The notes beneath the pieces are model-generated. The model had not been told where the DNA came from. It was given only the letters and a program-made list of their open reading frames with translations, and did not search any database. From Pseudanabaena sp. (GTDB taxonomy: Bacteria > Cyanobacteriota > Cyanobacteriia > Pseudanabaenales > Pseudanabaenaceae), in contig QBMK01000015.1 in the NCBI GenBank assembly GCA_003249035.1, positions 22,833 through 86,832 of the forward strand: a DNA stretch of 64,000 bases, in the 5' to 3' direction. The translations under genes and the position numbers were made by a program. Shown one piece after another: positions 6,314-58,177 of the stretch; within the stretch, counting starts at the first letter, position 1; each line of letters begins with the position of its first letter.

Positions 6314-6328
6314 GTAAATCTTCTATTC

Positions 6329-6694: not shown

Positions 6695-6746
6695 AAAGTC
6701 TTCAGTGATTTTGCTCTAAATTAATTAACTTTTAGAATACTCGGGT

Positions 6747-8241: not shown

Positions 8242-11200
8242 CTATGATGAGATGATCTGGTTCAATTTATTAATTAGTTCTTGTTCTCGATATGGCTTAC
8301 AGAAATATGCGTTCGCACCCAGATCTAAAGCCAATTTCCGATCGCTTTCATTAGTCTTGTCTGTAAGTACGATGATCGGCAAATTTTTTAGATCTATATC
8401 AGCACGAATACTTGATAAGAGATTGAATCCATCCGTATGATGTATTTCCAGATCAGTGATTACTACGGCAACATTTAGGCTTATCTTTAGGCAGTCTTTG
8501 AGAAATGAGATCGCCTCTTTGCCATCCTGAACCTGCTCAGTCAAAAAGCCTGACTTGGTGAGCGTCATCGCCAGATAGCGCCGAATATTAGCTGAAGACT
8601 CGACAATTAATACTCTGGGCTGAAGCGATCGTCTCATCTGAGGGGGTGTTAGCTCACTGGTAAACATTACAGAGCTTTCCAGATTTTCAGGCTCATGCGA
8701 TCGCTGTTCCGTTGCATCTAGTGAATCGAACATCGATGGTTCGGTATCTACGCTAAAGGATCGATCGCCCGAATCATCTACATTAGAGTGGATTGAATGA
8801 GAGGCAAGAACGGGAAGATTGGGGCGCTGACATTGCTTGACTAATTCTGCAGGATTAAGCAAAGCAATAGCCTGATTACTACCCAAAATTACTGTGCCCA
8901 GAAAAATTGGTGAAAGGATAATATCACCTTCGATTTGATGGAATGTCGCTTCTTGATCGTGCCAACAACCATCTGTTTGTAAAGCAAATAGCTCATTTTC
9001 ATGCTGGATTACTAAAAACGAAGGTGCGGCATGGTCAGGTTTCTGGCTTTCAGCCAAATTTGTTGATTGCTGGGATTTGGTTGATTTTGACCTTAAATTA
9101 GTGCGGCAATTGAGTCTTAGGAAAGAATTTAGTCGAACAATGGGCAGTAAGCGATCGCGCCATAGTAAATTCTCTTTCTCCCCAGACAAATTGTCATTAG
9201 CCTCGATTGGAATAACTTCCGATATCATCTTACTGGAAATAGCCAAACACATTTGATTAATATCGATTAGTAGCACACGAATTAAGGAGAGTATATTCGG
9301 CAAAACCAGAGTAAATTGAGTACCTTTTCCTCTTTGAGACTGCACCGAAATAGTTCCTCCAAACTTTCGCAACTTTTTCTTCACATCGCTTAATTTAGCT
9401 CCAGCTTCTGAATTACTTTGTACTAGATTAAAGCTTGGCTCAAGAATCAAACTAATTAATTGTTCATCACTCATATCCATCGTTGAAAAGCTTGGCATCC
9501 CTGCGATCGCTGCCGATTGTTCGACCTGATGGCGGATTTCGTCTATATCAATGCCACATCCATCATCACTAACCTTGATTATCGTGCTTTCATCAGTTTG
9601 AGTTATGATAAATTCAATTTTCCCTTGCGACACTTTACCCTCTTGTTGTCGCTCTTGGGGAGATTCAATTCCATGTTTAAAGGCATTGCGCAACAGCAGC
9701 TCAAGTGGCTCTGCGATTATTCCAGAGATTAATCTCTCAACCTCAACTTCTGCCCCTTGGACAACCAACTCAACCTGCTTGCCATACTGTAGGGAAAGAT
9801 CACGCAAAATACGTGGGAACCTTCTCACGAGACTGGAGATCGGATGTTTAAGAACTTGACGTAGATTCTTTCTTAAGTGATAAACATCTTGACTCATAGC
9901 ATCAGCTTGCTGCTCAGTGAGAGCAAGTACATTGTCAATCTGCTCAACTGCATTTTGTATACCTGCGATCGCGGTTTGGTTCTGGCTATTGGAGTTAGTT
10001 TCTAATAACTGTAATTGTTTTTGCGCTTCTTCCGAAAGCGATTTGATTTCGTTTAAATAAATATCTAGACTCCCCTTCCGCACTAACAATTCTTCTGACA
10101 AATCCCCCAACATTTCCAAATGATTTAATGGAATACGGATCGCCCCATCATTACCTCTTGCGGCAATCAGGACGTCTGACTTCCTGCTTAAATCCATCTC
10201 AGATTTTGCAACTATGGGTAAGGCAGAGAAATCAGCAAAAGAGATCTCTTTGTCCCCAAAATCAATAATTGATAAGTCTTGCCAAGAAGAATCGAAATTA
10301 TCAGGATTATTCTGATAAATTGGAGATTCCTCTATAGCCGTATCAATATCAGAAGCCGGAAAATCTTCTTTGAGTACTTCTGCTAACGTTGAGCTATTGT
10401 CTGGATTTGGACTAGTAGTTTTTGGTGCTTGGAGATTCTGAGCGGAATCTAGACGAGATGTAATGTGATCTAATGACTCAAAAAAGTTGACGAGAGGCTC
10501 GTCAACAGCTTTGTCATCATTAGATAAATCAAAATCAGATAGATCAAAAGCCGGCACAAGTTCTTCATCATTCGTCCTTGTCCAAGAATCCATGATTGTG
10601 AATTTGCTCCAGGCATCTCCATCCTCTCTTATATCTTTTTCCTCGGCTAAATCTTGCTCATTCCACTTAGTCCCTTGGATTTCAGTCTCATCCTCACTAC
10701 CCTGTAACTGTTCAGAAGATTGAGAAAATATTTCAGCAAGTAATTCGGGCATTGGTAATCTTTCCTGATTACTGCTTTCATTCAAGTTTTCAATTAACCC
10801 ATCTAAATCCCATTCAGGTGAGTCTTCAAATAAACGAGGGAATAACTTCTCTAATTCATCGATAGACCCTCCTAAGAGGTCTTGAGGCGACTCGCTGAAG
10901 TTCAAATAATCGTCTAATTGACCCGTCTGAGTTATTAAATTAACTTCTGGATTATCAATTTCTTCTGTTGGATTTTCATAATAGACATCCTGATCTGCAA
11001 GATCGGAATCTACACCAAAATCTATATCAAATAGATGGAGATCCTCTGGCTTGTCTTCAATGTTTGAAAGTTCATTTGTTCTATCATTGAGCTCTAAATA
11101 TCTTTGGGATAGAGTTTCATTTGTTTCCAATTGCAAATGTTCGTTAACTTGAGAAAATAAGTTCTGCTGTATCTCTACCCAGTCTTTAGCTAAATCAATT

Positions 11201-11550
11201 CCCAAACAATATTCATTGATTACTTGATTAGAAATATTAATCACTTCAATCAGCAATTCTTTGGCAACCCAATCAAGATCGGCACGGCGATCGCGAAACA
11301 TGTTGATTGAAGCCTCAAGATTGCTAGTTATTTCTGCAAAGGGAGAGGAACGGATATTAAAGTTAGCTTTAGTTGCGGCATCTTGAATCAACTTAATCGT
11401 AGAAATTATACTATCAATTTGTTGGCTAAAATTTGGCAGGCTTAAATCTAATTCCAAAATTTTATTTTTTAACTCATGCGTCAATGCTTGAGATTCTTTA
11501 GAAAAGATTTTTTTAGTTTGTGGAACAGTTTTAATCATCGGGAAATTCAT
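8242..11550 (-). CDS. Atypical CheA-like hybrid kinase (short Hpt, ~320-aa acidic insert, kinase core with degenerate G2 box, CheW-like, REC)
   Basis: 1102 aa. HELKN at aa 25-29 aligns with HSLKG of the neighbouring CheA. N box (LLRNAFKHGIE) and G1 (DDGCGID) are present. The G2 lid reads SEAGAKLSDV (9394-9411) instead of SGRGxGxD. The REC acidic pocket is E-S (8596-8601) instead of D/E-D. The D/E-rich region spans about aa 150-470. Confidence 0.8.
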   Translation of the reverse strand: MNFPMIKTVPQTKKIFSKESQALTHELKNKILELDLSLPNFSQQIDSIISTIKLIQDAATKANFNIRSSPFAEITSNLEASINMFRDRRADLDWVAKELLIEVINISNQVINEYCLGIDLAKDWVEIQQNLFSQVNEHLQLETNETLSQRYLELNDRTNELSNIEDKPEDLHLFDIDFGVDSDLADQDVYYENPTEEIDNPEVNLITQTGQLDDYLNFSESPQDLLGGSIDELEKLFPRLFEDSPEWDLDGLIENLNESSNQERLPMPELLAEIFSQSSEQLQGSEDETEIQGTKWNEQDLAEEKDIREDGDAWSKFTIMDSWTRTNDEELVPAFDLSDFDLSNDDKAVDEPLVNFFESLDHITSRLDSAQNLQAPKTTSPNPDNSSTLAEVLKEDFPASDIDTAIEESPIYQNNPDNFDSSWQDLSIIDFGDKEISFADFSALPIVAKSEMDLSRKSDVLIAARGNDGAIRIPLNHLEMLGDLSEELLVRKGSLDIYLNEIKSLSEEAQKQLQLLETNSNSQNQTAIAGIQNAVEQIDNVLALTEQQADAMSQDVYHLRKNLRQVLKHPISSLVRRFPRILRDLSLQYGKQVELVVQGAEVEVERLISGIIAEPLELLLRNAFKHGIESPQERQQEGKVSQGKIEFIITQTDESTIIKVSDDGCGIDIDEIRHQVEQSAAIAGMPSFSTMDMSDEQLISLILEPSFNLVQSNSEAGAKLSDVKKKLRKFGGTISVQSQRGKGTQFTLVLPNILSLIRVLLIDINQMCLAISSKMISEVIPIEANDNLSGEKENLLWRDRLLPIVRLNSFLRLNCRTNLRSKSTKSQQSTNLAESQKPDHAAPSFLVIQHENELFALQTDGCWHDQEATFHQIEGDIILSPIFLGTVILGSNQAIALLNPAELVKQCQRPNLPVLASHSIHSNVDDSGDRSFSVDTEPSMFDSLDATEQRSHEPENLESSVMFTSELTPPQMRRSLQPRVLIVESSANIRRYLAMTLTKSGFLTEQVQDGKEAISFLKDCLKISLNVAVVITDLEIHHTDGFNLLSSIRADIDLKNLPIIVLTDKTNESDRKLALDLGANAYFCKPYREQELINKLNQIISS

Positions 11551-11629
11551 TGCTTTTATTCTCTGCTAAGCTTCTCTGCTAAAATCAGCCCTAAGCGTGC
11601 TGCTTATCCTTGCTACGCTCAATTAAACT

Positions 11630-14600
11630 TTAGCGAGTTTTAAAATTAGTCAAGGATTGCTGGAGTTCTCCAGAATGCTCTTTGGTTTCTTTAACTAACT
11701 TGGAAGCTTCTGAAGAAGATGCAAGAGTCCGTTTAGCCATATTAGAAATATCGTTCATCAAGTTAGCAACCCCTTCAGATGTCTGGACTTGTGAAGTCGT
11801 CGCCTCTGAAATTGCGACCATTAATCCATCAATTTGTTGAGAAATTTTGGAAACCTGATGCAAGCTATCCTTGGCAGAGATCGCTAAGGTATTACTCTCT
11901 GAAATTTGCATGCTACCTGAATCAACTGCTGCCATCATTGCGGAAGTCTCACGTTGAATATTGCTTAGTAGGTTTTCCACTTCTTTCGTCGCAGTAACTG
12001 AACGAGCCGCTAGCTCTCCGACCTCTTCTGCAACCATTATAAATCCACTACTCGAATCACTTGAGCGAGATGCTTCAAGTGTTGCATTGATCGCCAGAAA
12101 GTTAGTCTTAATCGCAATTTCATTAATTGAAGAAATTGCCTTAGAAATTTTTTGGGATGTAACGCCAAGATGCTTGACCCTCTTTGCGGTAGTGGCAACT
12201 GTATTTTGCAATTCCCCGACCTTAGCCATTACAGCGTCGATAGTGCGATCGCTATCTGATACTTTTTCTGCTACTAGTTGCGATGATTGCAATGCTTGCT
12301 TACTATCACTAAGAATTCGTGTTGCTGATAGCTTCGACATTTGCATTGTATTTAGCGATCGCGTCACAATATCTACTTGCCTTTGTGAGACATTAGCTAA
12401 ATTAGCGATCGCCTGTTCATTTTGTCCGAGTGAGAAATTAACTTGGTTTGCCGACGACTTAACTTGACCAACAATATTTTGTAAGCCTCGAATGATATCA
12501 TCAAAGAATAAAGCGACATTTGGCAAGCTGCCATCTATCGATTGAGTGGAAACAGTAAGATCGCCATCGGCTAAAGCTTGTACATCTTTGAGCATTCGCA
12601 TCAAATGCCCTTGAAGTTCTTCTTTCTGTTGACGATAGCTCTCAACTTCAGCATTTCGTTGTACTAACTCTGAGCGTACTTTTTTGCCCATACGCAATAC
12701 ATTCTCATCAGACAAGTCCGCATTATGGACTCCGCGTTTTTCTTCTCTAGCCAGCTTTGCTAAGACATTAAACAACTTCACTACTTGCAATTGCAAGTTT
12801 TGCTTTTCCTGTTCTTGCTTCTGCATCATCGTCTGAAATTGTTCAGACATCTTATTGATACTTAAGGAAATATCTGAAATTTCATCATTCCCATCCACAC
12901 TTAAAGCCCCAAAGCTTAAAGCCGTTTTGCCTTGTCTAAGATCTCGTAAAGCAGCACGAATATCTTTAAGTCTTGAGCTCAGTTTGCGAGACAGAGCATA
13001 GGCTATTATCGCTACCAGCAAAGGTGTTGCAGCGATGCCAACACCGATGACTAGCAGTAGATTTTGATTCCCAGCGATTGCCTTAGCCTTGTCTACTGTC
13101 GTTAATACCCCCCAAGTTGACATGTCATAAGTCTCCACATTAGGCACAGGCGCATAGGCAAGCATCTGCCCATTGCGATCAATCTTCACGATATCTCCTT
13201 GTTCAGAGGATAGTGAAGTTCGCAAATCAGGGAGCTTTGGAAAATCAACTAAGGCATCTTCTCCAACAGTGACTGGTTGTGAGCTCGTTACATATTTGTT
13301 AGCACTATCAATCACATAAAAACTTCTAGTCTCTCTAGCATTAGCTTCTAATTTACTATCATTGGCTAAATCGTTCACCAATTTTTCTACAGGAATCTCA
13401 ACCTGCAAAATCATATTGCCTTTTTTTGAGGCAGAACTCTCGATCAACCTAACTGCATATAAATGTACGCCTTCTTTACCCACTACTGGGTTACTAAACA
13501 AGACATTATCCACAGAATCGACTTTACTGAGGATATTAGGGTTAAGAGTTTGTAGGGTTTTCGAGTTTGCTGATTGGGCGAGTAACTCTCCATTAGTGCT
13601 AAACAACGCGATGCTTGTGTACTGTGGATAAGCTTGAGAATAAAGATTTAGCCGATTAGTCAACTGTTGCTTATATTGACGCTGCTGATTAATTGGCGAA
13701 GAGTTTAAACTATTAGGAGCTTTGGTGTTCGCAGATGGATTGGGCACTGGGAGCTTTGGCTGGGTATTCTGTTCCACTTCTGTCGAGACCAGCAACTTTT
13801 GTAGCACTTCGACATTAGCAGTCTGCTGTCTTAAAAAAGTCTTGGTCACATTTGCTAAAGTATTCGCCTCCTGTTGCTGAGCTTGGGTGACCTTGTTTAA
13901 AAGTAACCCATCCCCTACTTGGTATGCAGCTACCCCCAAGGCGACCGCAGGAATAGTAGCAACCAAAGCACCCCATAGGGTAATCTTTTGGCTGACACTA
14001 GAGAATTTAAACATGTCCTCTAATGCGATCGCTGGGGAATCTTTTTTGTCAGTCGCTTTACTAATTGCTTTACTAAGATCCTTGCTGATCGCTTTACTCG
14101 GAGTTTTACTACGATCTTTGCTGGCAGATTTATTTTTCGAACTCTTTCGCAGCCCTGAGAAAACTGATTTTACAGGTGAAAACTCGATTTTTGGTTTACT
14201 ATTTTGATTTGCTTCTTGAGTATTATCAATCGTACCGCTCAAGTTTAATGGAGAACTATCTTCTATATCTTCTATATCTTCAAGATCTCCAATCATTATA
14301 TTTCCCACATCGCCAACCAACAAAGGCTCATCATCTGGCAATGATTGCTCCTGTAGAGAAGTTGATTGATCCTGCTCCTGAATCAGAGTTTCATCGCCTA
14401 GGAATAGTTGTTCTTGCGGAGAAGATTCTTGCTGGCTGCTTTTAATCAGCACTGCAATGGAAGGTGGAGGCGGTACTACACCATTGCCGTTAATCTTTGC
14501 ATTTACAGCGACAACAGGTTTATTAAGAGCTTTAATTGAAGGGGCTGGTGCAATGGATAGGTCACTAACGGACGTGTCATCATGGTGAACAGCTTGAGAA

Positions 14601-15019
14601 ATACTCCCATTGATAGATGTGCTCTTTGCTTGTGTGGAATCTAGCTGCAATGCTCTGTAGTTTTCTGCTTGAGCTTTATCAGCATAACTAGCTTCGATGT
14701 GATTGGGACTATTGAGGAGAGCGGTCGCTTTTTCAGGAGCTTTTGACTGTGAAATACTTGCTAGCTTGTTTTGGATTTGGGCAAGCGAAGTACTTGCAAG
14801 ATCGAGCAAATCCGGATCGTCTGTAAGAGTCAATACTTGTTGATATTGAGCCTTTGCAAACTCAATTTTCCCCGCCTTGCGAAATGTTGCGCCTAACCAA
14901 ATATGCAGTTTGGGGTTGCGAGGATCTTCATGCAACAATTCTGAGAACTGCTGCATTGCCTCTTCATACCGACCCTCTGCATAGGAGTGTAGAGCCGCCT
15001 GATACTGCGCTGTCATCAT
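11630..15019 (-). CDS. Methyl-accepting chemotaxis protein with long N-terminal cytoplasmic TPR and low-complexity region
   Basis: 1129 aa. N-terminal TPR-like helices (YQAALHSYAEGRYEEAMQQFSELL...) are followed by acidic and K/S-rich low complexity, 2 TM helices flanking a ~290-aa periplasmic domain, HAMP and an MA domain. The tip is divergent: IKTNFLAINATLEASRSSDSSSGFIMVAEEVGELAARS (around 11990-12090). Confidence 0.85.
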   Translation of the reverse strand: MMTAQYQAALHSYAEGRYEEAMQQFSELLHEDPRNPKLHIWLGATFRKAGKIEFAKAQYQQVLTLTDDPDLLDLASTSLAQIQNKLASISQSKAPEKATALLNSPNHIEASYADKAQAENYRALQLDSTQAKSTSINGSISQAVHHDDTSVSDLSIAPAPSIKALNKPVVAVNAKINGNGVVPPPPSIAVLIKSSQQESSPQEQLFLGDETLIQEQDQSTSLQEQSLPDDEPLLVGDVGNIMIGDLEDIEDIEDSSPLNLSGTIDNTQEANQNSKPKIEFSPVKSVFSGLRKSSKNKSASKDRSKTPSKAISKDLSKAISKATDKKDSPAIALEDMFKFSSVSQKITLWGALVATIPAVALGVAAYQVGDGLLLNKVTQAQQQEANTLANVTKTFLRQQTANVEVLQKLLVSTEVEQNTQPKLPVPNPSANTKAPNSLNSSPINQQRQYKQQLTNRLNLYSQAYPQYTSIALFSTNGELLAQSANSKTLQTLNPNILSKVDSVDNVLFSNPVVGKEGVHLYAVRLIESSASKKGNMILQVEIPVEKLVNDLANDSKLEANARETRSFYVIDSANKYVTSSQPVTVGEDALVDFPKLPDLRTSLSSEQGDIVKIDRNGQMLAYAPVPNVETYDMSTWGVLTTVDKAKAIAGNQNLLLVIGVGIAATPLLVAIIAYALSRKLSSRLKDIRAALRDLRQGKTALSFGALSVDGNDEISDISLSINKMSEQFQTMMQKQEQEKQNLQLQVVKLFNVLAKLAREEKRGVHNADLSDENVLRMGKKVRSELVQRNAEVESYRQQKEELQGHLMRMLKDVQALADGDLTVSTQSIDGSLPNVALFFDDIIRGLQNIVGQVKSSANQVNFSLGQNEQAIANLANVSQRQVDIVTRSLNTMQMSKLSATRILSDSKQALQSSQLVAEKVSDSDRTIDAVMAKVGELQNTVATTAKRVKHLGVTSQKISKAISSINEIAIKTNFLAINATLEASRSSDSSSGFIMVAEEVGELAARSVTATKEVENLLSNIQRETSAMMAAVDSGSMQISESNTLAISAKDSLHQVSKISQQIDGLMVAISEATTSQVQTSEGVANLMNDISNMAKRTLASSSEASKLVKETKEHSGELQQSLTNFKTR

Positions 15020-48281: not shown

Positions 48282-51200
48282 TTAGTTGTCTGTCTCAACT
48301 TGCTTAGTAGGAATCTTTTTCTCAGGAGCCTTTTCCTCAATATCTAAACTGCCTGATAGGAAATCATCAATTTCAGCTCTAGCAGTATTGATTGAATCCT
48401 CAGCAGGCAACTCAAATGCAGAAAAATCAAAATCAGGCTCACTTTCCAACTCTCTATCGCTTTCATCAGCTCCTAAAGTCTGATTGTCACTTAGGGCTGG
48501 AAAAGCTTGTAAATCAGGCAACCCAATGGATAGACCGTCAAATCCTTCATCAGATTCATCCATTAGACTGTCCAGCAAGTTATCAGCAAAACCATAGGCA
48601 TTATTATCATCTAATCTGTCACCGACTTCATCTTCAGCAGGATATCCAATTGACAAATCATCATCTAAACTAGCAATTTTTTCGCTATTCCCTTCTGTGT
48701 TATCCACAACCTCATCAAACCAATTATCTGAGTAATCTAGAGAAAGATCGGGATCAGATTCAGTAAATCCCCAATCCAAATCTATATTGCTGGTCTCAGA
48801 GATCCCAAAATCTAAAGCATCCGATGAAGCCTCTATATCTAAATCATCAGCGATCCCATCAAAAATAACTGATTCTTTGAGCTGCAAAGCGTTGTCTGCG
48901 TCAGGTTCTTTATCTAAAATCTCGCTAAACATGATTGATTCGTCATCAGCTCCCATGCCTCCGGTAAGCGCTTCAAAAGTTGATGAATTCTCATCAGTGT
49001 CTAAGATAATTTCAGAATTATTTATGAATTCTTGATAGCTTAACTCGGACTCCTGCTCTAAATTGTCAATAAATATTGAGGAGACATCTGCTTCAGAGTC
49101 ACTTAACAACCCTTCAGCAAAATCTATAGGAGCTTCTTCATCCAAATAACTTGATAAGGCATCATAATCAGCATCATCATTGGATAATTCAAACGTAAAT
49201 CCTTCATCAAATAAAGCATCGCCAGTTTCTTCCATCAAGGACAAGTCTGATAGAGCGAATGTTTCGCTAGGACTATCTGTCACGTCTGAAGTTGGGATTT
49301 CAGGAAGCTCTTCTCGAACTTCAGAACTTTCCACAAAAGCTGGTGAGACATCTTCAGTTTCCCAGATTACTTCAGAAGACTGTAATTCTACATTTTCAAT
49401 TTCATCGATCAACGAAGGAAACGCTGTCTCTAATTCGCTATCTGTAAGAGTTGATACGCGACTATCTTCGATTCCATGGCTTGGTGTGAGGATCTCAATT
49501 TCTTCACCAAATGCATCATCAATCTCATCTTGAACATTATCTTGAGACTCAAATGGATCTGCTAAATTCTCACTATCTGAGATAGGATTCACCTCAAAAG
49601 TAGCAAAGAAATTAGATTCATCAGCCGTAGTTTCTTCAGTTTGCCAAACTGAATCTAGCTCATTATGCTCCTCAGATAGGCTATTAGTTATATTATGCTC
49701 AATCTCAAGTTGATCGCCTAAATTTTCTGCTGAATCATCGTCAATTACATTAAACAAAGCAGATATATCTTCTGATTTCGCATCAGACAAGTCTAGAGAA
49801 TCATCGTCTTGAGGACTTGTGGAAACATCGAACGGATCTGTAACAAACTCTTCGCTATCCTCGGCGGAATCAGCATCCAATAATTCGTCAGAAGAACTTT
49901 CTAAGAAATTATCTGACTCAATCAAACCAGCTGATTCCATCGATAAGCTTTCATTAGAGTCAAAAAAGAAATCTACTGATGGAAAATTAGATATATCCAT
50001 TGGATCTGATTCGACATCTTCTGTTTGCCAAATTGAGTCTAGATCATCAGAATCTCCTACTTGATTATCTATTGTATTTTGCTCAAGCTCAAATTGATCT
50101 CCTAAAGTTTCTGCATCATCATCGCTTACATTAAACAAAGCAGATACATCTTCTGATTCTTCATCAGATAGATCTATTGAAAAGCTTTCCAGATGTTGTG
50201 TCTCTTGCATAAGAGAATCGTTGTCTGGAATATTTATGGAAAGATCGAATGGATCTGTGGCAAATTCATTACTATCTTCGATAGAAGTAGCATCCAATAA
50301 TCCATCAGCAGAACCTTCCGAGGTATCATCTAATCCAAATAAATCTAAAGATTCCATCGATAAGCTTTCACTAGTTTCAAAAGCGAAATCTACAGATGGG
50401 AGATCGGATAGATCCATTGGAGGCGACATAATCTCCAATTCTGGTGCGATCGCAAGATCTACAGAATCACTAACTTGATCCTCAAAATCTTCAACAATTT
50501 CTTCGCCAAACTCCTCATTTCCTTTATTAATAGTCAAATCAAAGAAGTTATGAGGTTCCACTGCATCAGTGTCTTTTGTTAATGGGTTTTCATCTATATC
50601 AAAGGTAAACTCTTCTAAAAATTCATCATCCGAAGATGCGTCAAGGTAAATATCAGGAATTTGGGTGGGCAACTCAGATAATCCGCTTGGATTTTCAAGA
50701 TTATCGGAATAAATATCTGATTGATCTAACTCAAATTCATCCCCTGTTGTTGTATCTGGGTGCGCACTCTCAAAAGTACTCTCGACAAAAGAAATAGGTT
50801 CATCCAGAGAAATATTAGGTGATTCATCCAAATTGCTTTCAAATACTGAATCAGCAAAAGATGTATCAAAGCCATCACCAATAAACTCATTGGATGGACT
50901 TTGAAGAGATTCTTCTAAAGCTTCATTAATCGCGTTGTTGGATGTGAATTCACTATAATCTTCGGACTCGTGAGCTACAAAATTTTCGGAAATATCCTCA
51001 GTATGAATTTCACCAATACTTGCATCTAGAGAATTTAATTCCAACGGAATCTCATTCCCAATGGACTCCTCATGGGATTCTACTGTTTCCTGAATTATTG
51101 TTAGATCGTCTGCCGCAAAGGGATCAAAATCTGAGCTAAATCGATTAACTTCAATTTCTTGTTTTGAAGTATTACTATCAAAGAATGAATTTGAATCATC

Positions 51201-54200
51201 GAGCGTTGATTCTATATTCATTTTGGGAATGACGAAGTCTTCGTCATCAAGATCTGGAATCTTAAAGTCAACAAATGGTGACAAGTTGAGATTTGAATCT
51301 TCATCAAGAGGTGTCACAGTTCCAAAAGCTGTATCTTCTAAAAATGAAGAAGTTGCTGAGACAATAAAAGGATCACTTGCAGCTTCAACGATCGCAAACT
51401 CATTAACGCCCTCTATGGGATTTTTTAGAGTTGGTGCTGTATCAGAATTATCCTCAATTAAAAATTCTTCGTCTGAATTATCGTTATAAATTTCTTGCTT
51501 AAGATCGGCAAGTAGCGCTTCTTCAATTATGGATATATCTGTGAGATCGGAATAACTTGCTGGAGCTTGATTTTCGTTGTCGATGACCTCTTCAGATACG
51601 ACATTTTGTGAGACAGCAGCAAAATTTTGACCTTGCAGAGATTCTGCTGCATTTTCCTCGCTAGCCACACCACCAATATGATCATCGAGTAAATCTTCAA
51701 GATATCTATTATCCGTAGCAGTGTTATCTTCCTCGTTAAGTGTTGCGGAATCAGTTGGGATGTCTTTTGATTGGGAGAGTCCGACCGCAGTTACTGCCGT
51801 CACAACTGCGATCGCAGGTACAACTAAACCTAAATTACTATTAGTCTCAGAATTGCCAGATTCTGTTGAGGATTCAAGCAAAGTGTTGACATTTGTATCG
51901 GAGCTGTCAAGCTCAATCCCTGAAGATATCTCATTAGCCAATGGTTTAGAAGAGTCAGGCAAGCGGAAAAATTGAATGCCTTGGAGAAGCTGCTGCGCCT
52001 GATCTCCCATAGCTTCTGCTTGCTGTCTTGCCGATCTTGTTAAGTCGGCAGTGCGATCGGCTAACTGTGATATCTCACTGATATAACTTGCCGTAGATCC
52101 TGCTGCTCCTGCAATTTCGCTACTAGATTCAGTAATAGTTTGTCCAATTTGGACAACTTCTTCTGTAGCAATTTGAATGCTATTGAAAGCAGATTGTGAT
52201 GACTCAACGCCCTCTGTAAAGCCTGCGACCAGTCCACTTAAGTTCTGCACCTCGACATCAATCGCTGTTACAACGGTTTGGATTTGCGAAGTGCGTTGTT
52301 GCAGCACTGTCAAACCATCGTTGGTCTGAGTTGCCAAATCATTAACTTGCAATGCGATCGATTCAAATTCTCGGGCAACACTCGTGAATTGCTTTGGATC
52401 TTTTTGTTCAGCAGCTCGAGCGGCAACAAGGGTAGCATTGAGTGCCAACACCTGAGTTAAAGAAGCAATCTGACCTTGATCTTGCACAAATTGTTCTGCT
52501 AAACCGACGAATTCGCCAAGTGTTTTCATCCGTTGCACGATCTGCGCTGAACCTGTTTGCAAGACACTGATACTGTCCGTCAGAGTATTAATCGCAGTTT
52601 GACCAGAAGTAACTGTGTCACGAACTTCTTGAAGTGATTGGTTTGCAACACTAACCTGTGTTGCCGATCGCTCTGCGATAGTTGCTACTTGTTCAGTCAG
52701 TGCTTGCCCTTGAGCAACTGATTGGGCTTGCTCGGCAGTGTTTAGCACCACAGTTCTGGCTAACTCTTCGAGATCGGCAGCACCCTGAGCTACCTGTTGG
52801 GCAGTACCTAGTACACTAGAAATAATCTCTACAAGTTTTTCGCGAAGGCGGTTGAGTGTATCAGCGACTAACCCTGTAGCGCGATCGTTGACTTGGGCTT
52901 CAATAGTGAGATCGCCTTCTTCCATTAATGAGACTACTTCTAGTAGGTTGCCAACTTCAGCCTCCATCAACTCTGTTTCAGCAAAATTTAATTGGATCTG
53001 AGCCGCAGTCGATATGTCATCGCCAGAAGTTGAAGATTGGTTTAGTTGACCGCGCAAGCGAATTTCATTGTTTTTTACTTGTTGGAAAGTATTTTTTAAA
53101 GTGAGTCCAAGTTGATCGATTTCATCTTTGCCAGCAACGTTACTGCCAGAGTTTCCTTGTTGACGCAAGAAGCGATCGCATTCTTCGGTAAGCGGCTTAA
53201 GTCGCTTTTTGAGAGAATTGACAAATCCTAGGATGGCGATCGCCAAAATTGCACTAATCCCAACCGCAGTTCCCCCAACTAAAATAATTAGCCTATTGGT
53301 GATTTCCGATTCAGGCAACTGTGCCGCAACTAGCAAACCACTGCTTGGAATTTTACGGTATGCCCAAAGATTACCCCCTGTTTGGATAATTCCTGATGGT
53401 TGAGTTTTAGCTTGTTGCGCGAGACTAGTGAGAGCTTCTCCGATCGCTGGATTTTTGCTCTGCAATGACTGAAACTGGTTGGAAGCAGAAATTACTTTGC
53501 CGCTACTGCTAGCTACTACTAAACCAATTTTGCTTTCATTGGCAGAATCTGGATAAGTAGCTGTATCGACCAACGATAAAAATTGACCTGCAATGACATC
53601 AGCATTGACAATTCCCACAATTTTCTGTCCATCGCTGATGGGAGCGCTGTAGGTGATAATCGTCTTACCCAAAGCGGTATATATCTGTGACCAGGATGCT
53701 TGACCCTTAAGAGTATCTTGATAAAAGGGTGCTTTTTGAATGTCTGATCGATCGCCTGCCAACAATTTGTCATTGGGTACATCGAGCTTTTGACCGGGAG
53801 TTTCAGGTGTTAAGCCAGATTGTTCATTCCAAACATATGGCACAAGGGGCTTAGCTGGAGGAAATAATAAATTGCCACTCGATGCGATCCCCATACCTGC
53901 TATGGAGTCATCGCTTTGCAAACTCTCAACCAGTAGCCTTTGAAAAGGAGCCGAGCCCCTTGGCTTCGGCTGTTGCTGCAAGAGTATTTTTGCCCCGCGA
54001 GCGGCTCCATCAACTGTCTGTTGCACATTAGCTAGCTTAGCTTCGATCTTCCGAGTCTGAGATTCGGCTGATATGTCAACTTCTCTTCGCGAGCTACTTA
54101 GTAGTTCTTGATAAACAAAATATCCTAAACCACCTAATCCAATCAGCGATGTGCCAATTGCAATCAGAAGCAACCCCAGCCCCATTGAACCTTTAGGCTT

Positions 54201-54308
54201 ATTTGAATTTGGCACAGGCTGCGACTTAGGAGATCGCATTGAAGATGATTTCTCGCTCTTGCCTGAAGAAGTCGCTCGGTTTTTCTTAGATGTGCTTGCC
54301 ATATGCAT
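48282..54308 (-). CDS. Giant MCP-like protein: 2 TM plus Cache-like sensor, HAMP, divergent MA domain, putative third TM helix and a ~1160-aa acidic C-terminal tail
   Basis: 2008 aa. TM1 is about aa 43-66, the periplasmic domain about aa 67-339, TM2 about aa 340-363. The MA tip reads LALNATLVAARAAEQKDPKQFTSVAREFESIA. A hydrophobic segment LGLVVPAIAVVTAVTAVGL spans aa 826-844 (51777-51833). The rest, to the C-terminus, is D/E/S-rich low complexity. Confidence 0.85.
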   Translation of the reverse strand: MHMASTSKKNRATSSGKSEKSSSMRSPKSQPVPNSNKPKGSMGLGLLLIAIGTSLIGLGGLGYFVYQELLSSSRREVDISAESQTRKIEAKLANVQQTVDGAARGAKILLQQQPKPRGSAPFQRLLVESLQSDDSIAGMGIASSGNLLFPPAKPLVPYVWNEQSGLTPETPGQKLDVPNDKLLAGDRSDIQKAPFYQDTLKGQASWSQIYTALGKTIITYSAPISDGQKIVGIVNADVIAGQFLSLVDTATYPDSANESKIGLVVASSSGKVISASNQFQSLQSKNPAIGEALTSLAQQAKTQPSGIIQTGGNLWAYRKIPSSGLLVAAQLPESEITNRLIILVGGTAVGISAILAIAILGFVNSLKKRLKPLTEECDRFLRQQGNSGSNVAGKDEIDQLGLTLKNTFQQVKNNEIRLRGQLNQSSTSGDDISTAAQIQLNFAETELMEAEVGNLLEVVSLMEEGDLTIEAQVNDRATGLVADTLNRLREKLVEIISSVLGTAQQVAQGAADLEELARTVVLNTAEQAQSVAQGQALTEQVATIAERSATQVSVANQSLQEVRDTVTSGQTAINTLTDSISVLQTGSAQIVQRMKTLGEFVGLAEQFVQDQGQIASLTQVLALNATLVAARAAEQKDPKQFTSVAREFESIALQVNDLATQTNDGLTVLQQRTSQIQTVVTAIDVEVQNLSGLVAGFTEGVESSQSAFNSIQIATEEVVQIGQTITESSSEIAGAAGSTASYISEISQLADRTADLTRSARQQAEAMGDQAQQLLQGIQFFRLPDSSKPLANEISSGIELDSSDTNVNTLLESSTESGNSETNSNLGLVVPAIAVVTAVTAVGLSQSKDIPTDSATLNEEDNTATDNRYLEDLLDDHIGGVASEENAAESLQGQNFAAVSQNVVSEEVIDNENQAPASYSDLTDISIIEEALLADLKQEIYNDNSDEEFLIEDNSDTAPTLKNPIEGVNEFAIVEAASDPFIVSATSSFLEDTAFGTVTPLDEDSNLNLSPFVDFKIPDLDDEDFVIPKMNIESTLDDSNSFFDSNTSKQEIEVNRFSSDFDPFAADDLTIIQETVESHEESIGNEIPLELNSLDASIGEIHTEDISENFVAHESEDYSEFTSNNAINEALEESLQSPSNEFIGDGFDTSFADSVFESNLDESPNISLDEPISFVESTFESAHPDTTTGDEFELDQSDIYSDNLENPSGLSELPTQIPDIYLDASSDDEFLEEFTFDIDENPLTKDTDAVEPHNFFDLTINKGNEEFGEEIVEDFEDQVSDSVDLAIAPELEIMSPPMDLSDLPSVDFAFETSESLSMESLDLFGLDDTSEGSADGLLDATSIEDSNEFATDPFDLSINIPDNDSLMQETQHLESFSIDLSDEESEDVSALFNVSDDDAETLGDQFELEQNTIDNQVGDSDDLDSIWQTEDVESDPMDISNFPSVDFFFDSNESLSMESAGLIESDNFLESSSDELLDADSAEDSEEFVTDPFDVSTSPQDDDSLDLSDAKSEDISALFNVIDDDSAENLGDQLEIEHNITNSLSEEHNELDSVWQTEETTADESNFFATFEVNPISDSENLADPFESQDNVQDEIDDAFGEEIEILTPSHGIEDSRVSTLTDSELETAFPSLIDEIENVELQSSEVIWETEDVSPAFVESSEVREELPEIPTSDVTDSPSETFALSDLSLMEETGDALFDEGFTFELSNDDADYDALSSYLDEEAPIDFAEGLLSDSEADVSSIFIDNLEQESELSYQEFINNSEIILDTDENSSTFEALTGGMGADDESIMFSEILDKEPDADNALQLKESVIFDGIADDLDIEASSDALDFGISETSNIDLDWGFTESDPDLSLDYSDNWFDEVVDNTEGNSEKIASLDDDLSIGYPAEDEVGDRLDDNNAYGFADNLLDSLMDESDEGFDGLSIGLPDLQAFPALSDNQTLGADESDRELESEPDFDFSAFELPAEDSINTARAEIDDFLSGSLDIEEKAPEKKIPTKQVETDN
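49618..50420 (-). repeat. Tandem duplication of a ~139-aa unit inside the acidic tail
   Basis: Unit 1 is aa 1297-1435 (50004-50420; PMDLSDLPSVDFAFETSESLSMES...DSIWQTEDVESD). Unit 2 is aa 1436 to about 1563 (about 49618-50003; PMDISNFPSVDFFFDSNESLSMES...DSVWQTEETTADE) and has an ~11-aa deletion. Confidence 0.8.
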
Positions 54309-54419
54309 TCGCTATAGGGAAAGGATCGGATATTTTTGTGAGAATCATCCTACACTATAGCTGCCATAATCATGCAGACAAATAAGTAAGTCTCAACCTG
54401 AACTCTTGGACGCAAAGCA

Positions 54420-55007
54420 TCAGCTAGAAATATGCCAACGTTGCGGTCGCCAAATATGAGCAGGAATATTCAATAGGATAATTTCAATGGGAGTATACTC
54501 GTTCTCTTTAATATTTGCTACTGTTTGATTTGTTTTTTTTGTAGAGTTGTCGGCAAAACTTGTGACGCCGAGCGATGGAAACTCTGGAGCCGATGCATCT
54601 GCATGTAAATCCTTATACTCCTCAATGGTAAGACTGCCAATCACTCTATCTACGACTATACCCACCCCGCTAAGATTTTGACCATTAAATTCCTCAGCAA
54701 TTTTACTTAGCCTCACCACTGTCAAAGATTCTGTGATTAGAGTGCGTTGTTCACCGATTAACAGCCTTAACAACAACAAAGGCATCACATTTGCTTGGTG
54801 GTGCGTCACACCAATGATTGCTGTTTCATAAAAAGGCAAAGCTAAAATCGCATTGCGATCGAGAATAATGATTTCAGAGACTAAAACATCGGGGAAAGTA
54901 ACTGAGAGATCGCCGACTTTTGTCACAATGTACCTATTACTTGGTGCAATTAGCCGTTCAAGTAAGTTTTCAGCTTTATTGGCTTGGCTAATCTCAGGAA
55001 CGATCAT
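54420..55007 (-). CDS. CheW-like coupling protein
   Basis: 195 aa. CheW-type pattern (YIVTKVGDLSVTFPDVLVSEIIILD...ILALPFYETAIIGVTHHQANVMPLLLL). Its start overlaps the upstream REC gene stop (ATGA). Confidence 0.7.
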   Translation of the reverse strand: MIVPEISQANKAENLLERLIAPSNRYIVTKVGDLSVTFPDVLVSEIIILDRNAILALPFYETAIIGVTHHQANVMPLLLLRLLIGEQRTLITESLTVVRLSKIAEEFNGQNLSGVGIVVDRVIGSLTIEEYKDLHADASAPEFPSLGVTSFADNSTKKTNQTVANIKENEYTPIEIILLNIPAHIWRPQRWHISS

Positions 55008-55381
55008 TTCACACTTTGTGGCAACTTATTCAAGACTTCAGCTAATGACTCACGACTAACAGGCTTTGGCAAATAGTCATTAGCTTTAGCGCGTTTTAGC
55101 CCGTAATCAATTTCCAGCTTGGTGATTTTAGTTGAGTATAAAATTACGTACTGATCAGCTATTTCTTGTTGCGATCGCAGTTCTCGCAAAAATTTGTAAC
55201 CATCTTGTTCTGGCAACACAATATCCAAGAAAATTGCTGCATAGCTATTGTTGATTATCTTATCCAAAGCACCTACAGTCGATTCGCAGAAATCTACGGT
55301 ATGTCCTAAATCTTTTAGGAAAGAACTTAGTGCATGGCTCTGAGTTGCAGAATCATCAATTATTAAAAAATGCTCGCTCAT
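55004..55381 (-). CDS. CheY-like single-domain response regulator
   Basis: 125 aa. REC residues IIDDS, FLDIVLP, YSTK, PKP. Confidence 0.85.
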   Translation of the reverse strand: MSEHFLIIDDSATQSHALSSFLKDLGHTVDFCESTVGALDKIINNSYAAIFLDIVLPEQDGYKFLRELRSQQEIADQYVILYSTKITKLEIDYGLKRAKANDYLPKPVSRESLAEVLNKLPQSVK

Positions 55382-55539
55382 AATTTTTTACTTAAAATTT
55401 TAAAAATACAATTGGTTAAATACAACTATTTAAGGAAAACCAAGTACCCCCCAGACAATTAGTTTTAGATAAATTTATATCCCACATACTCTATGGCTCA
55501 TAAGGCTAACTGCAAAAAATTGGTGTAACTGGATAGATT

Positions 55540-56748
55540 CTAGACTAGTGTATCTGTTGATAAAGGTGCAAGCTCTCTCAATAAATTACGCAATTCGTTG
55601 CGGAATTTTGGTGTATCCGACGACGATCGCGGCTTAGCTAGAAAACGACAATTTGCCCATCTTGCCCTAAAGTTGTTAGTCATACTGTTTTCTGCAGTAA
55701 CTAACACTAAGGACAAAGAAGTTAATTCACGTTGACGACGAATTTGTTTAATCAAATCAAAGCCATTTAAACTTGGCATATTGATATCAATAAATACAAT
55801 AGTCGGTTTGTAGTCTAAGATTTTTCCGGTAGCTAGCTCAGCGTTATCAGTAAAGTCAACTTGATACCCCCAACTAATTAGTAACCGTTGCATTTGTTGC
55901 AGTAAAACAGGAGAGTCGTCAACGATAAAAACTTTAGGCTCATCTTTGGCTATGATTTGAGTAGTTAATCGACCGCTAATGTCATCATCTGGCTTGCGTT
56001 CTTGCAACGGCAATATTAACACAATGTTTTTTTGAGCTAACTTGTCTAGTAATAGAGCTGTCCGATAAATCGGCTGGTTAAAAGTATCTGCGATCGCACC
56101 AATGCGATCTTGCCCGGTTGTTACCTTAGCGAAAATTGGAAAGTTATCATTGCCAACCCTTGCCAATAGATTTGCTGCATCAACAAGTTGAACTAATTGA
56201 TAGGGGTGTTTTACACAACCAAATCTTTGCCATTGTCTCACTTCATTCGTGATCGTCTTTTCGAGATCAGATAGTTGCCAAACAGGGAGATTTATTTGCA
56301 GATCATTGATAGGCTTCCAGACAAAAGAGAATCCATTTTCTAAGTACAATGCCAACAAATTTTCTAAGATTACTTCTTTTAGAACTTCTTTAGTAATTTC
56401 GGGATGTTTTTTATAAACACTACTCACAAACGGATAACAGTAAGGGCGATTAGTTTGGCGCATCTCCCATTCGGGAATGCGAGCAAAATTAATACCTTTG
56501 CGATTGTATTTGCGAACTAATGTGGGTATGACTTGACCTTCTTCTTCTGCTAATACTAAGCCCCCGCCAGCAAGTAATAATTTCCACCGATGATATTTTG
56601 TTTCTACGCAAATTACGCCCTTAGAACGACTCATTACGCGCATAGCTGCTAGCAGTATATGTAATGTGGCATTCCTCACTACCTGCCCGTCCGTCAAGTT
56701 ATTAGACACTAGGTCTGAGTTAGGCAAGGAACCTGTCATAGCAATCAT
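55540..56748 (-). CDS. PatA-type response regulator (PATAN-like N-terminus plus REC), paralog A
   Basis: 402 aa. REC residues FIVDDS, FIDINMP, VTAE, AKP. Clearly paralogous to the next gene (shared blocks WKP...LP.WQL.DLEK, KHPYQ.VQL.D, NNFRA.WANCRFL.KP). Confidence 0.8.
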   Translation of the reverse strand: MIAMTGSLPNSDLVSNNLTDGQVVRNATLHILLAAMRVMSRSKGVICVETKYHRWKLLLAGGGLVLAEEEGQVIPTLVRKYNRKGINFARIPEWEMRQTNRPYCYPFVSSVYKKHPEITKEVLKEVILENLLALYLENGFSFVWKPINDLQINLPVWQLSDLEKTITNEVRQWQRFGCVKHPYQLVQLVDAANLLARVGNDNFPIFAKVTTGQDRIGAIADTFNQPIYRTALLLDKLAQKNIVLILPLQERKPDDDISGRLTTQIIAKDEPKVFIVDDSPVLLQQMQRLLISWGYQVDFTDNAELATGKILDYKPTIVFIDINMPSLNGFDLIKQIRRQRELTSLSLVLVTAENSMTNNFRARWANCRFLAKPRSSSDTPKFRNELRNLLRELAPLSTDTLV

Positions 56749-56794
56749 GTTTTTTGACTGGGAGGCACTTGGACAGAATAAATACTATAAATAT

Positions 56795-56825
56795 CACTAA
56801 AAACGGATCTACTCATTGTAGATCC
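56795..56825 (-). terminator. Weak terminator or attenuator between the two PatA paralogs
   Basis: GGATCTAC-aatga-GTAGATCC on the minus strand (56805-56825), followed by CGTTTTTAG. Confidence 0.35.
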
Positions 56826-56950
56826 TAGCAACCATAGATCAATTCAATTGGTTGTTTTAGATACATTACCCAAAATTGAAATTAGGTTGTCATGGTGCTT
56901 AATATAAGTAATTCTACTTAACATTAGTTCAGGTCGCGCTAAGAGAATTT

Positions 56951-58177
56951 CTATATTGCTGCAAAATCCTGCAAAATCGTCCGAACTTGCTCACGAAATT
57001 CTTGGATATCATCAGATTTGACTGGCTTACTTAAAAACCGGCAATTTGCCCACTTTGCGCGAAAGTTGTTGGTAATAGTATTTTCGGATGTCACCAAAAC
57101 TAAAGGTATGCTTGCCAAAGATGGTTGCCGCCGAATTTGTTTTATCAAATCAAACCCATTTAAATTTGGCATATTGATATCCATAAATACAATATCTGGT
57201 TTTTCTAACAATATTTGTCTAGTAGCGTTAGCTGAGTCGTTTACTAGGCTTAATTGATACCCCCAACTAGCTAGTAAGTTGCCAAACTGTTTGAGCAAAA
57301 CAGGCGAGTCATCAACAATCATCACTTTAGGTTGCGATCGCGTTTCAACTGTTTCATCAAGAGCTGGGCTATCATTAATTTCTGAGGATCGTAAATGTAG
57401 TGGCAAGATAGCAACCGTACGATTTTCCGCTAGTTTATCGAGTTTGAATGCCGTGCGAGTAATATGTTGTTGAAAGAGATCGGCAATTTCACTTATTCGA
57501 AATTTACCGTTTGTAACCTTCTTAAAGACTGGGACTTGGGCGATGCTAGATTCAGTATCTAGTAGTTGCACAACTTGATAGGGATGACGAACATAATTGA
57601 AATTGCACCATTGATCGGTTGCTTTGGCGATCGCCTTTTCAAGATCCTGTAGTTGCCAGATCGGCAAAATAATTTGAGGATCTAATGTCAATGGCTTCCA
57701 TCGCAGGGAAAACTTTTTTTCTAAAGAAATTGCTAAAAGATTTTCTAACAGTATTTCTTTAAAAACAATTAGACAATTTTTGCGATCTTGAGCATGAATT
57801 TTACCTAAAAGCCGATAAGTCTCAACATTACTATTAGGCTTAAGCGTCATACTGCGGAGAAGATCTTGAGGGATCTGAGCTTTGTGGATTTTTAGTTTTC
57901 GACTTAGAGTCGGCAAAAACTCGCTTTTATCCTCGATAAAAGCGATACTTTCACCATGAAGAAAGATGTTCCAACTGAAATGAGGCGTTTCAATATTGAC
58001 AATCCCAGTATTCTTTTTGAGTACCCGCAAGATTGACATGAGACTGGTATGTGTCAAATCAGAGGCAACTTCGCCAACTAAGAGGCTATTGACCTGTTTG
58101 TTAATAATCTGATGAACGCTTTTTTCTGTCGGGAGAATTGAAACGTCGTTCTCTTGTGAAGTCTGCGTCATTGTCAA
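56951..58177 (-). CDS. PatA-type response regulator (PATAN-like N-terminus plus REC), paralog B
   Basis: 408 aa. REC residues MIVDDS, FMDINMP, VTSE, SKP. It is the first gene of the cluster. Confidence 0.8.
   Translation of the reverse strand: MTMTQTSQENDVSILPTEKSVHQIINKQVNSLLVGEVASDLTHTSLMSILRVLKKNTGIVNIETPHFSWNIFLHGESIAFIEDKSEFLPTLSRKLKIHKAQIPQDLLRSMTLKPNSNVETYRLLGKIHAQDRKNCLIVFKEILLENLLAISLEKKFSLRWKPLTLDPQIILPIWQLQDLEKAIAKATDQWCNFNYVRHPYQVVQLLDTESSIAQVPVFKKVTNGKFRISEIADLFQQHITRTAFKLDKLAENRTVAILPLHLRSSEINDSPALDETVETRSQPKVMIVDDSPVLLKQFGNLLASWGYQLSLVNDSANATRQILLEKPDIVFMDINMPNLNGFDLIKQIRRQPSLASIPLVLVTSENTITNNFRAKWANCRFLSKPVKSDDIQEFREQVRTILQDFAAI

Follow-up and report, generated by a model that had tools for sequence, protein, structure and literature searches.

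What would a bacterial chemoreceptor do with a C-terminal extension that is longer than the receptor itself? The question is raised by a gene on the minus strand of the Pseudanabaena sp. DNA analysed here (NCBI GenBank assembly GCA_003249035.1, contig QBMK01000015.1, positions 22,833–86,832; this whole stretch of 64,000 nucleotides is referred to below as the window). An open reading frame (ORF) at 48282..54308, with an ATG start and an end coordinate that takes in the stop codon, encodes a protein of 2008 amino acids (aa) which we identify from the ORF and ~95 full-length orthologs as a PilJ/HmpD-like methyl-accepting chemotaxis protein (MCP) with a C-terminal tail. A sequence-only reading of this DNA had described a 2008-aa protein with a 19-residue hydrophobic stretch at aa 826–844 (51777..51833) followed by a long acidic tail, and each of these elements is confirmed by the ORF and its composition. 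We find that an otherwise conventional receptor here carries a conserved, polyanionic and disordered tether of unprecedented length, and searches of the open-access literature on PilJ/HmpD, Pseudanabaena and chemoreceptors generally found no description of such a tail.

The receptor and its acidic tail

The part of the protein ahead of the tail is laid out as a membrane-bound receptor (all positions given for features of this gene are on the minus strand). Two transmembrane (TM) helices, TM1 at aa 44–62 (LGLLLIAIGTSLIGLGGLG; 54123..54179) and TM2 at aa 341–359 (IILVGGTAVGISAILAIAI; 53232..53288), were recognised by hydropathy, with Kyte–Doolittle means of 2.0 and 2.5, respectively, and a Hessa-scale sum of –1.3 for TM2. 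They are predicted to bracket an extracytoplasmic sensor domain, with basic residues both in the cytoplasmic N-terminus (a K/R-rich stretch ahead of TM1) and in the flank following TM2 (KKRLK). The sensor itself is a periplasmic PDC/Cache-like domain at aa 123–238 (53595..53942) matched by Pfam MCP-like_PDC_1 (E 3.8e-08, 34.2 bits, over the 27-bit cut-off). Beyond TM2 is a conserved cytoplasmic signalling region at aa 450–785 (51954..52961), delimited by Pfam and by column conservation, which ends in LLQGIQFFRLP and in which columns are 90–98% conserved amongst 89 orthologs. MCPsignal was matched here at aa 588–749 (E 4.4e-07 at 30.3 bits) with 30–32 bits, which is below the 34.6-bit Pfam gathering cut-off, and PF00015 is amongst the precomputed database domains of the exact protein and of nearly all of its orthologs; these matches place the protein in the MCP superfamily. 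Of the 2-TM, Cache-like, HAMP and MA layout proposed in the sequence-only reading, the two TM helices, the PDC domain and (below cut-off) MCPsignal are found, but the HAMP domain is not detected by Pfam after TM2, in either aa 355–450 or aa 1–825, even at E≤10, and a divergent HAMP is possible. A variable, acidic and Ser-rich linker (aa 786–825; 51834..51953) of low conservation and with gaps then leads from the signalling domain to the hydrophobic Ala/Val/Pro motif LGLVVPAIAVVTAVTAVGL (aa 826–844), a putative TM3 recognised by hydropathy and ortholog conservation which we judge probably not to span the membrane. The polyanionic and predicted-disordered tail occupies aa 845–2008 (48285..51776), as assigned from the composition, the model confidence and the substitution rates given below.

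The protein is identical to the hypothetical protein DCF20_12890 of a Pseudanabaena sp. metagenome-assembled genome (MAG), and the ~95 orthologs are of 1600–2140 aa, with several encoded on contigs of 4.5–5.4 Mb. The same architecture is found in named strains and complete chromosomes, e.g. in P. minima Chao 2107 and Pseudanabaena sp. BL-A-41, with tails of 860–1285 aa (this survey of named strains took one genome per species). The possibility that orthologs might end at around aa 800, and that a frameshift or misassembly had joined two genes, can thus be set aside for Pseudanabaena, in which the tail is conserved genus-wide. Nei–Gojobori dN/dS ratios for 13 species pairs were 0.23–0.37 for the tail and 0.07–0.14 for the receptor core; the tail evolves ~3x faster than the core, yet with these ratios it is clearly under purifying selection as a protein.

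The 1164 aa of the tail are rich in D (14.9%), E (13.6%), S (12.9%), L (9.1%), F (6.3%) and N (5.9%), with 332 D+E against 23 K+R giving a net charge of –309, and beyond aa 1000 there are 27–32 D/E and 0–5 K/R per 100 aa. It had been called hyper-acidic and low-complexity, and the second of these terms needs correcting: the composition entropy is 3.75 bits for the tail and 3.90 bits for the N-terminal part of the protein, and Tandem Repeats Finder (TRF) found no tandem arrays in the tail, which is compositionally biased and not of the simple-repeat type of low complexity. The recurring motifs mentioned in the same description were also borne out in part, with DPFD, SVDF and WQTE occurring exactly twice each and DFDF occurring once. 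These pairs result from a single tandem duplication and not from a scattered repeat system, with copy A at aa 1293–1431 (50016..50432) in the lineage-variable middle of the tail and copy B at aa 1432–1558 (49635..50015) having low occupancy in the orthologs. The copies (~139 aa) share 53% protein identity (E 3e-34) and 74–82% DNA identity, showing that the tail can grow by internal duplication. A simple tandem-repeat protein is ruled out by the empty TRF result and by there being only this one duplication.

In a charge–hydropathy plot the tail falls on the disordered side, with aa 961–1045 alone being borderline. An AlphaFold2 (AF2) model of aa 809–2008, built with a 42-sequence alignment, gave predicted local distance difference test (pLDDT) scores of <50 for 1082 of the 1200 residues (~90%), and helices solely at aa 925–941, 970–977, 980–991, 1907–1916 and 1972–1984, which coincide with the conserved islands described below. 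Pfam searches at E≤10 found no family in the tail and NCBIfam returned nothing useful, whilst the PDB yielded nothing above noise (E ~0.7–9), whether the query was the C-terminal 105 aa or a profile built from the conserved module. The CheC-type phosphatase motif is absent from the tail of this protein.

Conservation along the tail, as profiled across the 89 orthologs, is uneven. Two segments, at aa 919–942 (YSDLTDISIIEEALLADLKQEIY) and aa 961–1045, match the periplasmic sensor in conservation, the lineage-specific aa 1250–1650 contain the duplication, and over the final 350 aa conservation is moderate but peaks sharply in two places, at aa 1904–1918 (AYGFADNLLDSLMDE) and aa 1974–1986 (NTARAEIDDFLSG). 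The tail residues found to be invariant in the 42-sequence alignment are 13 positions in aa 929–1042 plus A1976, E1979, I1980, F1983 and L1984.

The first helical island (aa 919–942, YSDLTDISIIEEALLADLKQEIYN; 51483..51554) has E929, L936 and E939 as invariant residues and its AF2 helix has the top block pLDDT of the model (~79). It is followed by a conserved and almost indel-free block of 85 aa (aa 961–1045; 51174..51428) with the consensus LKNPxEGVNE..SDPxIVSATSSFLEDTAFG..VDFxIPDLDDxDF..IESxLDxSNSFFD, in which the two short AF2 helices have a pLDDT of ~72. Towards the end of the tail, the helical motif AYGFADNLLDSLMDESD (aa 1904–1920; 48549..48599) includes the nearly invariant F.AD.LL.SL..E and the AF2 helix at aa 1907–1916, and most orthologs have a single LLDSL 70–105 aa upstream of the C-terminal motif. 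The C-terminal helical motif itself, SINTARAEIDDFLSGSLDIEE (aa 1972–1992; 48333..48395), is modelled as a helix at aa 1972–1984 with pLDDT 69–77 and is followed by a short and variable Lys/Pro-containing end. Virtually every complete ortholog has one and only one match to E[IV][DE]x[LF]L in its tail, always 13–55 aa from the C-terminus, and the divergent tailed clades end in motifs of the same register (FDDVFDVNL, FNDLLDVDL and PFNIDFLVEE). At tail-less loci, the C-terminal motif was not found in any other protein encoded within ~8 kb.

A candidate docking tether and its alternatives

A folded core, a charged and disordered chain of variable length, and a few invariant short helices of which one is fixed near the C-terminus together suggest a tether carrying docking motifs. 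The tail also evolves in a tether-like manner, with lengths of 844–1360 aa, a variable middle with a fresh tandem duplication, and conserved ends. We propose that a PilJ/HmpD-type receptor gained this C-terminal extension in Pseudanabaena and some relatives, and that the extension would remain in the cytoplasm as an intrinsically disordered and strongly negative tether of ~1,160 residues. Short conserved segments within the tether might fold into amphipathic helices to which soluble partners could dock, and the concentration of these partners at the receptor array would thereby be raised. The conserved motif at aa 826–844 might contact the membrane surface, the receptor bundle or another protein, and would not export the tail. 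That the tail is cytoplasmic, that it serves for docking and which protein it binds are all inferred from sequence comparison and modelling, and we give the general model about an even chance of being correct. The fallback in the sequence-only reading was that the tail is a very large, disordered scaffold which lies in the cytoplasm and is joined to the receptor array, and it is this fallback which fits the comparative evidence and the predicted disorder.

The likeliest partners may be the CheY-like response regulators encoded just upstream, because the C-terminal helices of the tail resemble the peptides by which CheZ and FliM bind phosphorylated CheY (at its α4–β5–α5 face) and because three CheY-type receiver proteins are encoded alongside the receptor. 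The N-terminus of FliM/FliY uses LSQxEIDALL (PMC6700473, PMC9126983) and in FliM is disordered until bound (PMC6700473), and the C-terminal CheY-binding peptide of CheZ, QDQVDDLLDSLGF, is helical in complex with CheY (PMC5760072). EIDALL of FliM and ARAEIDDFL of the tail have E-I-D-x-Φ-L in common in the same register, and VDDLLDSLGF of CheZ and ADNLLDSLMD of the tail (from FADNLLDSLM) have D-x-L-L-D-S-L in common. Like these CheY-binding peptides, the tail motifs are predicted to be helical within disordered sequence and belong to a chemotaxis protein encoded beside CheY-like regulators; unlike them, they sit on a receptor and not on the motor switch or a phosphatase. The match to LSQxEIDALL and QVDDLLDSLGF is partial, the tail motifs having neither the LSQ found in FliM nor the GF with which the CheZ peptide ends, and the core positions are invariant or nearly so in the orthologs. 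HMMER searches against the PDB and Pfam found no match to the tail motifs, as would be expected for motifs of 10 aa. A response regulator docking at the array is the most specific proposal on offer. Docked regulators could feed the kinase, be held near the membrane, or be taken up by the tail as a sink. A CheY-like regulator as the partner, suggested by analogy with these peptides, is a tentative assignment that we regard as possible and not as probable.

A number of points weigh against this interpretation. The resemblance of the motifs was noticed after the fact and involves a generic type of acidic amphipathic helix, and the C-terminal peptide of FtsZ, DIPxFL, looks similar to the tail motif as well. 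A single-sequence AF2 chimera of CheY and the end of the tail had a pLDDT of 47.7, which is too low to inform, and the 85-aa block (aa 961–1045), for which a profile search found no PDB relative, has no assigned function. The 19 residues at aa 826–844 are all uncharged and have a Kyte–Doolittle mean of 2.34, which is over the classical threshold of 1.6 and hydrophobic enough that standard TM predictors may well call a helix there. This motif clearly matters, being conserved as far as the Tumidithrix-like clades and having an invariant Pro and other specific residues that are conserved. Finally, the Hessa-scale sums used in our topology argument are simple ones that carry no position weighting.

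A cytoplasmic tail might instead act in bulk as a polyelectrolyte brush or entropic spacer with no specific docked partner, in which case the islands would have intramolecular roles only and the brush could space arrays, keep thylakoid membranes, the nucleoid or ribosomes off the site of pilus control, or buffer cations. The extreme and uniform charge, the predicted disorder and the large variation in length and turnover of sequence would suit such a role, as would the tails of Tumidithrix and of the short-tail clades, which are alike in composition to the tail in the window but have no BLAST-detectable similarity to it. A pure brush would, however, need only its composition to be conserved, whereas specific islands have invariant residues and are free of indels in the 42 orthologs, and a single, positionally fixed motif is retained near the C-terminus of essentially every complete ortholog. 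We therefore think a brush unlikely, if less so than the readings which follow.

The architecture would be the same as that of the docking tether if the docked partner were not a CheY-like regulator and instead an unlinked CheA (PilL/HmpE-like), HmpF, the PilB/PilT motor ATPases, or a protein of the cytoskeleton or of cell division with an affinity for FtsZ-like C-terminal peptides. The Φ-x-x-Φ-Φ acidic helix is generic enough to allow this, and a kinase tether is conceivable given that CheA is not adjacent here and is found 2–3 kb downstream in other Pseudanabaena. Tax3/Hmp systems elsewhere are also thought to act via HmpF (PMC12288463, PMC12422006). Nothing specific speaks against this reading; the closest resemblances we found were to the two classical CheY-binding peptides, and we consider another partner to be rather improbable.

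The sequence-only reading had put forward a third TM helix at aa 826–844, with the tail located in the periplasm or lumen where it would buffer or sense cations or anchor the receptor to the envelope or slime. The hydropathy of this uncharged segment lies between the values for TM1 and TM2, and most Pseudanabaena conserve the motif LGxVVPAIAVAA..TAV, whilst Tumidithrix-like clades have related segments rich in Pro, Ala and Val. In standard MCP geometry the signalling hairpin runs back towards the membrane, which the segment could reach from its place 40–60 aa past the end of the hairpin. However, the motif is absent in one ortholog (P0045), reduced to AAATATTI in a cluster of 151 member sequences (P0085–87), weakened in another (P0034), missing in the clade with tails of 270–480 aa, and deleted in two Pseudanabaena mucicola proteins (P0098/99); all of the lineages in which it is missing or degenerate keep the acidic tail, and those from Pseudanabaena also keep the islands and the C-terminal motif. 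In P0098/99 the tail must be cytoplasmic because it follows TM2 and the juxtamembrane region without a third hydrophobic segment. The Hessa-scale sum for aa 826–844 (a simple sum, unweighted by position) is +1.1 (+1.08) kcal/mol, with a family median of +2.5, compared with –1.3 and –1.6 for TM2. The flanks of the motif are acidic, with 3.1–3.5 D/E and 0.3–0.4 K/R per 15 aa on each side and no positive-inside signal, and AF2 models the segment as coil with a pLDDT of ~32. The tail contains no canonical Ca2+-binding loops of the EF-hand or RTX-like type (D.D.DG is found 0 times, and DxDxD once against 3.6 expected), and its conserved helices resemble docking peptides of cytoplasmic signalling. 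We conclude that aa 826–844 are probably not membrane-spanning. There is only a slim chance that in most Pseudanabaena the segment inserts and >1,000 residues of polyanionic tail are exposed in the periplasm or envelope, the lineages without the segment having secondarily re-routed the tail; if true, such a third-TM receptor would have an MCP topology and an extracytoplasmic appendage without precedent.

It is barely credible that the length of the ORF reflects misassembly, the fusion of two genes, or an extension which has no function and expands neutrally: the GC content drops from ~0.44–0.46 in the core to ~0.36 in the tail, one database entry (P0100) is tail-only, and tail-less orthologs at 46–49% identity function without it, but ~95 orthologs including those of complete chromosomes have a like architecture, P0100 is due to a 100-N scaffold gap, the tail has a dN/dS of ~0.3 and invariant motifs, and the GC drop would be expected from the GAT/GAA/AAT/TTT-rich codons of a D/E/N/F-rich sequence. 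We reject misassembly and gene fusion given the recurrence of the architecture in complete genomes and the gap explaining P0100. It should be noted that, owing to this gap (L001 7802–7901), the orthologous gene appears as an 876-aa ORF plus the 1181-aa 'tail-only' P0100, an annotation artefact which could be mistaken for a two-gene arrangement. Several Ser-rich ORFs of 81–117 aa are found antisense to the tail on the plus strand at 48392–51975, and these look like by-products of the GAx-rich coding strand, where there is also a strong GC skew, and not like genes.

Related receptors and comparable tethers

Relatives of the receptor were surveyed by an exhaustive HMMER search with aa 1–825 against 1.84 billion cluster representatives, using match end-points and protein lengths. 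The signalling domain is followed by 844–1360 aa in Pseudanabaena, by 1295–1468 aa in Tumidithrix and by 270–480 aa in some Pseudanabaenaceae. Other Pseudanabaenales at 46–49% identity (L043–L049 and P0102) have no long tail, and P0102 lies in a CheY–CheW–MCP–MCP–CheA cluster. In other orders (Chroococcidiopsis, Hydrococcus, Xenococcaceae, Leptolyngbyaceae, Elainellaceae and Stenomitos) there are 9–85 aa after the signalling domain, which agrees with the view in the sequence-only reading that an MCP normally stops at its signalling domain. When the tail alone was the query, no homologs were found outside the receptor family, with all 53 matches being the same Pseudanabaena MCPs. The tail is a lineage-specific and fast-evolving addition to a conserved receptor.

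Receptors from Tumidithrix and related clades (P0092, P0093, P0103, L041 and L042) have equally long acidic tails of 1100–1470 aa. They keep a Pro/Ala/Val-rich hydrophobic segment 80–100 aa past the signalling domain and a Φ-D-D-Φ-Φ-type motif near the C-terminus, and in these clades the composition and two short motifs have outlasted all other sequence. In the two P. mucicola proteins (P0098 and P0099, of 1496 and 1444 aa, respectively) the whole MCP signalling domain has been deleted along with the hydrophobic motif, and aa 1–413 (the sensor, TM2 and the juxtamembrane region) are joined straight to an acidic tail that retains the conserved islands and a C-terminal EIEDFL motif. This suggests either that the tail may do something unconnected with controlling the kinase or that the gene is in decay.

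The nearest comparison amongst chemoreceptors is with Escherichia coli Tar/Tsr, in which a ~35-aa unstructured linker and the NWETF pentapeptide recruit CheR/CheB (PMC7390727). In both cases an unstructured segment lies past the signalling domain, with a short conserved docking motif (putative in the case of the tail) that would raise the local concentration of a partner at the array. In contrast to Tar/Tsr, the linker here is polyanionic and >1,100 aa long, ~30x the ~35-aa linker of Tar, with several internal conserved islands and not one terminal motif, and the cluster encodes no CheR or CheB. No xZxxZ motif (Z = F/W/Y) is found at the extreme C-terminus, where the protein ends ...IPTKQVETDN and the orthologs are variable and non-aromatic, and on this evidence the receptor is not of the pentapeptide type.

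FtsZ has a folded core, a disordered linker, a DIPxFL-type C-terminal peptide and a short variable end. The receptor tail resembles this layout in having a length-variable disordered linker, a predicted amphipathic docking helix and a variable Lys-containing terminus, and E-I-D-D-F-L is similar to D-I-P-x-F-L; it differs in belonging to another family and process, and the FtsZ linker is usually far shorter and less uniformly acidic. We take the resemblance as a caution on the assignment of a partner and not as evidence of a link to division. HubP/FimV of Vibrio and Pseudomonas are membrane-anchored hubs with periplasmic LysM and C-terminal FimV domains. They are similar to the receptor in having a very acidic and largely unstructured cytoplasmic region which organises chemosensory and pilus proteins (for context see bioRxiv 10.1101/2025.10.27.684771), but the hubs are separate scaffold proteins whereas the acidic region in our case is part of the receptor. 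The receptor is not a homolog of HubP/FimV because it has no LysM or FimV domains, with only PDC and MCPsignal found in the protein and no Pfam match in the tail at E≤10.

By the usual view, a chemoreceptor ends either where its signalling hairpin ends or in a ~35-residue tether for adaptation enzymes. Here, an entire genus (plus relatives with independently diverged tails) has a selected polyanionic extension which is longer than the receptor and has a few invariant helical motifs. If CheY-like regulators or other proteins of the pathway bind to these motifs, the receptor would be its own scaffold or sink for downstream components and the array would be wired in a new way, and the tail would offer a natural system for how long, charged and disordered tethers tune local concentration. 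This bears on the control of type IV pilus polarity in filamentous cyanobacteria, where the Tax3/Hmp pathway is still poorly understood, and the tail-less sister lineages and the natural variant lacking the signalling domain are ready-made comparisons.

Gene neighbourhood and pathway

The MCP belongs to an operon-like cluster (54308–58177) in which it, a CheW, a CheY and two PatA-type regulators are all encoded on the minus strand. Directly upstream of the MCP is a CheW-like coupling protein of 195 aa (54420..55007; Pfam CheW, 24.8 bits against a 23.5-bit cut-off). This is longer than the 146-aa CheW of a tail-less relative (L002), with a ~50-aa C-terminal extension which is apparently non-conserved. 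Next is a single-domain CheY-like response regulator of 125 aa (55004..55381; Pfam Response_reg, E 1e-17), orthologs of which (53–89% identical) adjoin the MCP at 72 loci. It is followed by a PatA/PixG-type response regulator of 402 aa (55540..56748) with a ~260-aa N-terminal domain and a REC domain matched by Pfam Response_reg, and by a second one of 408 aa (56951..58177) which is a paralog of the first (46% identity, E 6e-116). The PATAN domain itself was not detected by Pfam in either of these, and the 402-aa regulator shares 25% identity over 238 aa with a DUF4388 (PATAN)–REC protein encoded elsewhere in the window at 6747–7970. Downstream of the MCP are genes for a PstS-like binding protein (plus strand) and ResB.

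Several of the orthologs are named 'twitching motility protein PilJ' by JGI, and the Tax3/Hmp (PilG–PilH–PilI–PilJ) systems control the assembly and polarity of cyanobacterial type IV pili (PMC12288463, PMC12422006). Going by the architecture of the cluster and by source names such as PilJ, this is probably the receptor of a Tax3/Hmp-type chemosensory cluster, of the PilJ/HmpD type, and it probably steers type IV pilus motility. The clusters of Synechocystis PilJ (Tax3) and Nostoc punctiforme HmpD (Hmp) likewise combine PatA-type regulator(s), CheY, CheW and an MCP, and these receptors are likened to ours by architecture and not by sequence (two TM helices, a periplasmic PDC/Cache-type sensor and an MCP signalling domain). 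In contrast to the Tax3/Hmp receptors, there are ~1,220 aa after the signalling domain here and 9–85 aa in orthologs outside the Pseudanabaenaceae, and unlike the Tax3/Hmp clusters, the CheA gene is not adjacent in the window.

No CheA adjoins the tailed MCP in the window, and the cognate hybrid CheA (PilL/HmpE) is neither in nor near the cluster. We note that a CheA-like gene is found 2–3 kb downstream of the tailed MCP and on the same strand in many other Pseudanabaena loci (L014, L020–L022, L026, L028, L029, L038–L040 and L047), and that CheA-like genes also follow the MCP in tail-less relatives. With CheA beside the MCP in other species and not in the clade represented by the window, the kinase gene would therefore have been relocated here. 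The two CheA proteins encoded in the window belong to other modules and are only 24–36% identical to the CheA which follows the tailed MCP in other species, and the cognate kinase is thus probably encoded outside the window.

These other modules are two further chemotaxis-like gene sets on the minus strand at 25–15019, with ~33 kb between them and the tailed receptor. Encoded in them are a hybrid CheA with Hpt, HATPase, CheW and REC domains (25–2838), a HAMP-containing MCP (2893–5679), the DUF4388/PATAN–REC regulator mentioned above (6747–7970), a second CheA-like hybrid without a detectable Hpt (8242–11550), and an MCP with N-terminal TPR repeats (11630–15019).

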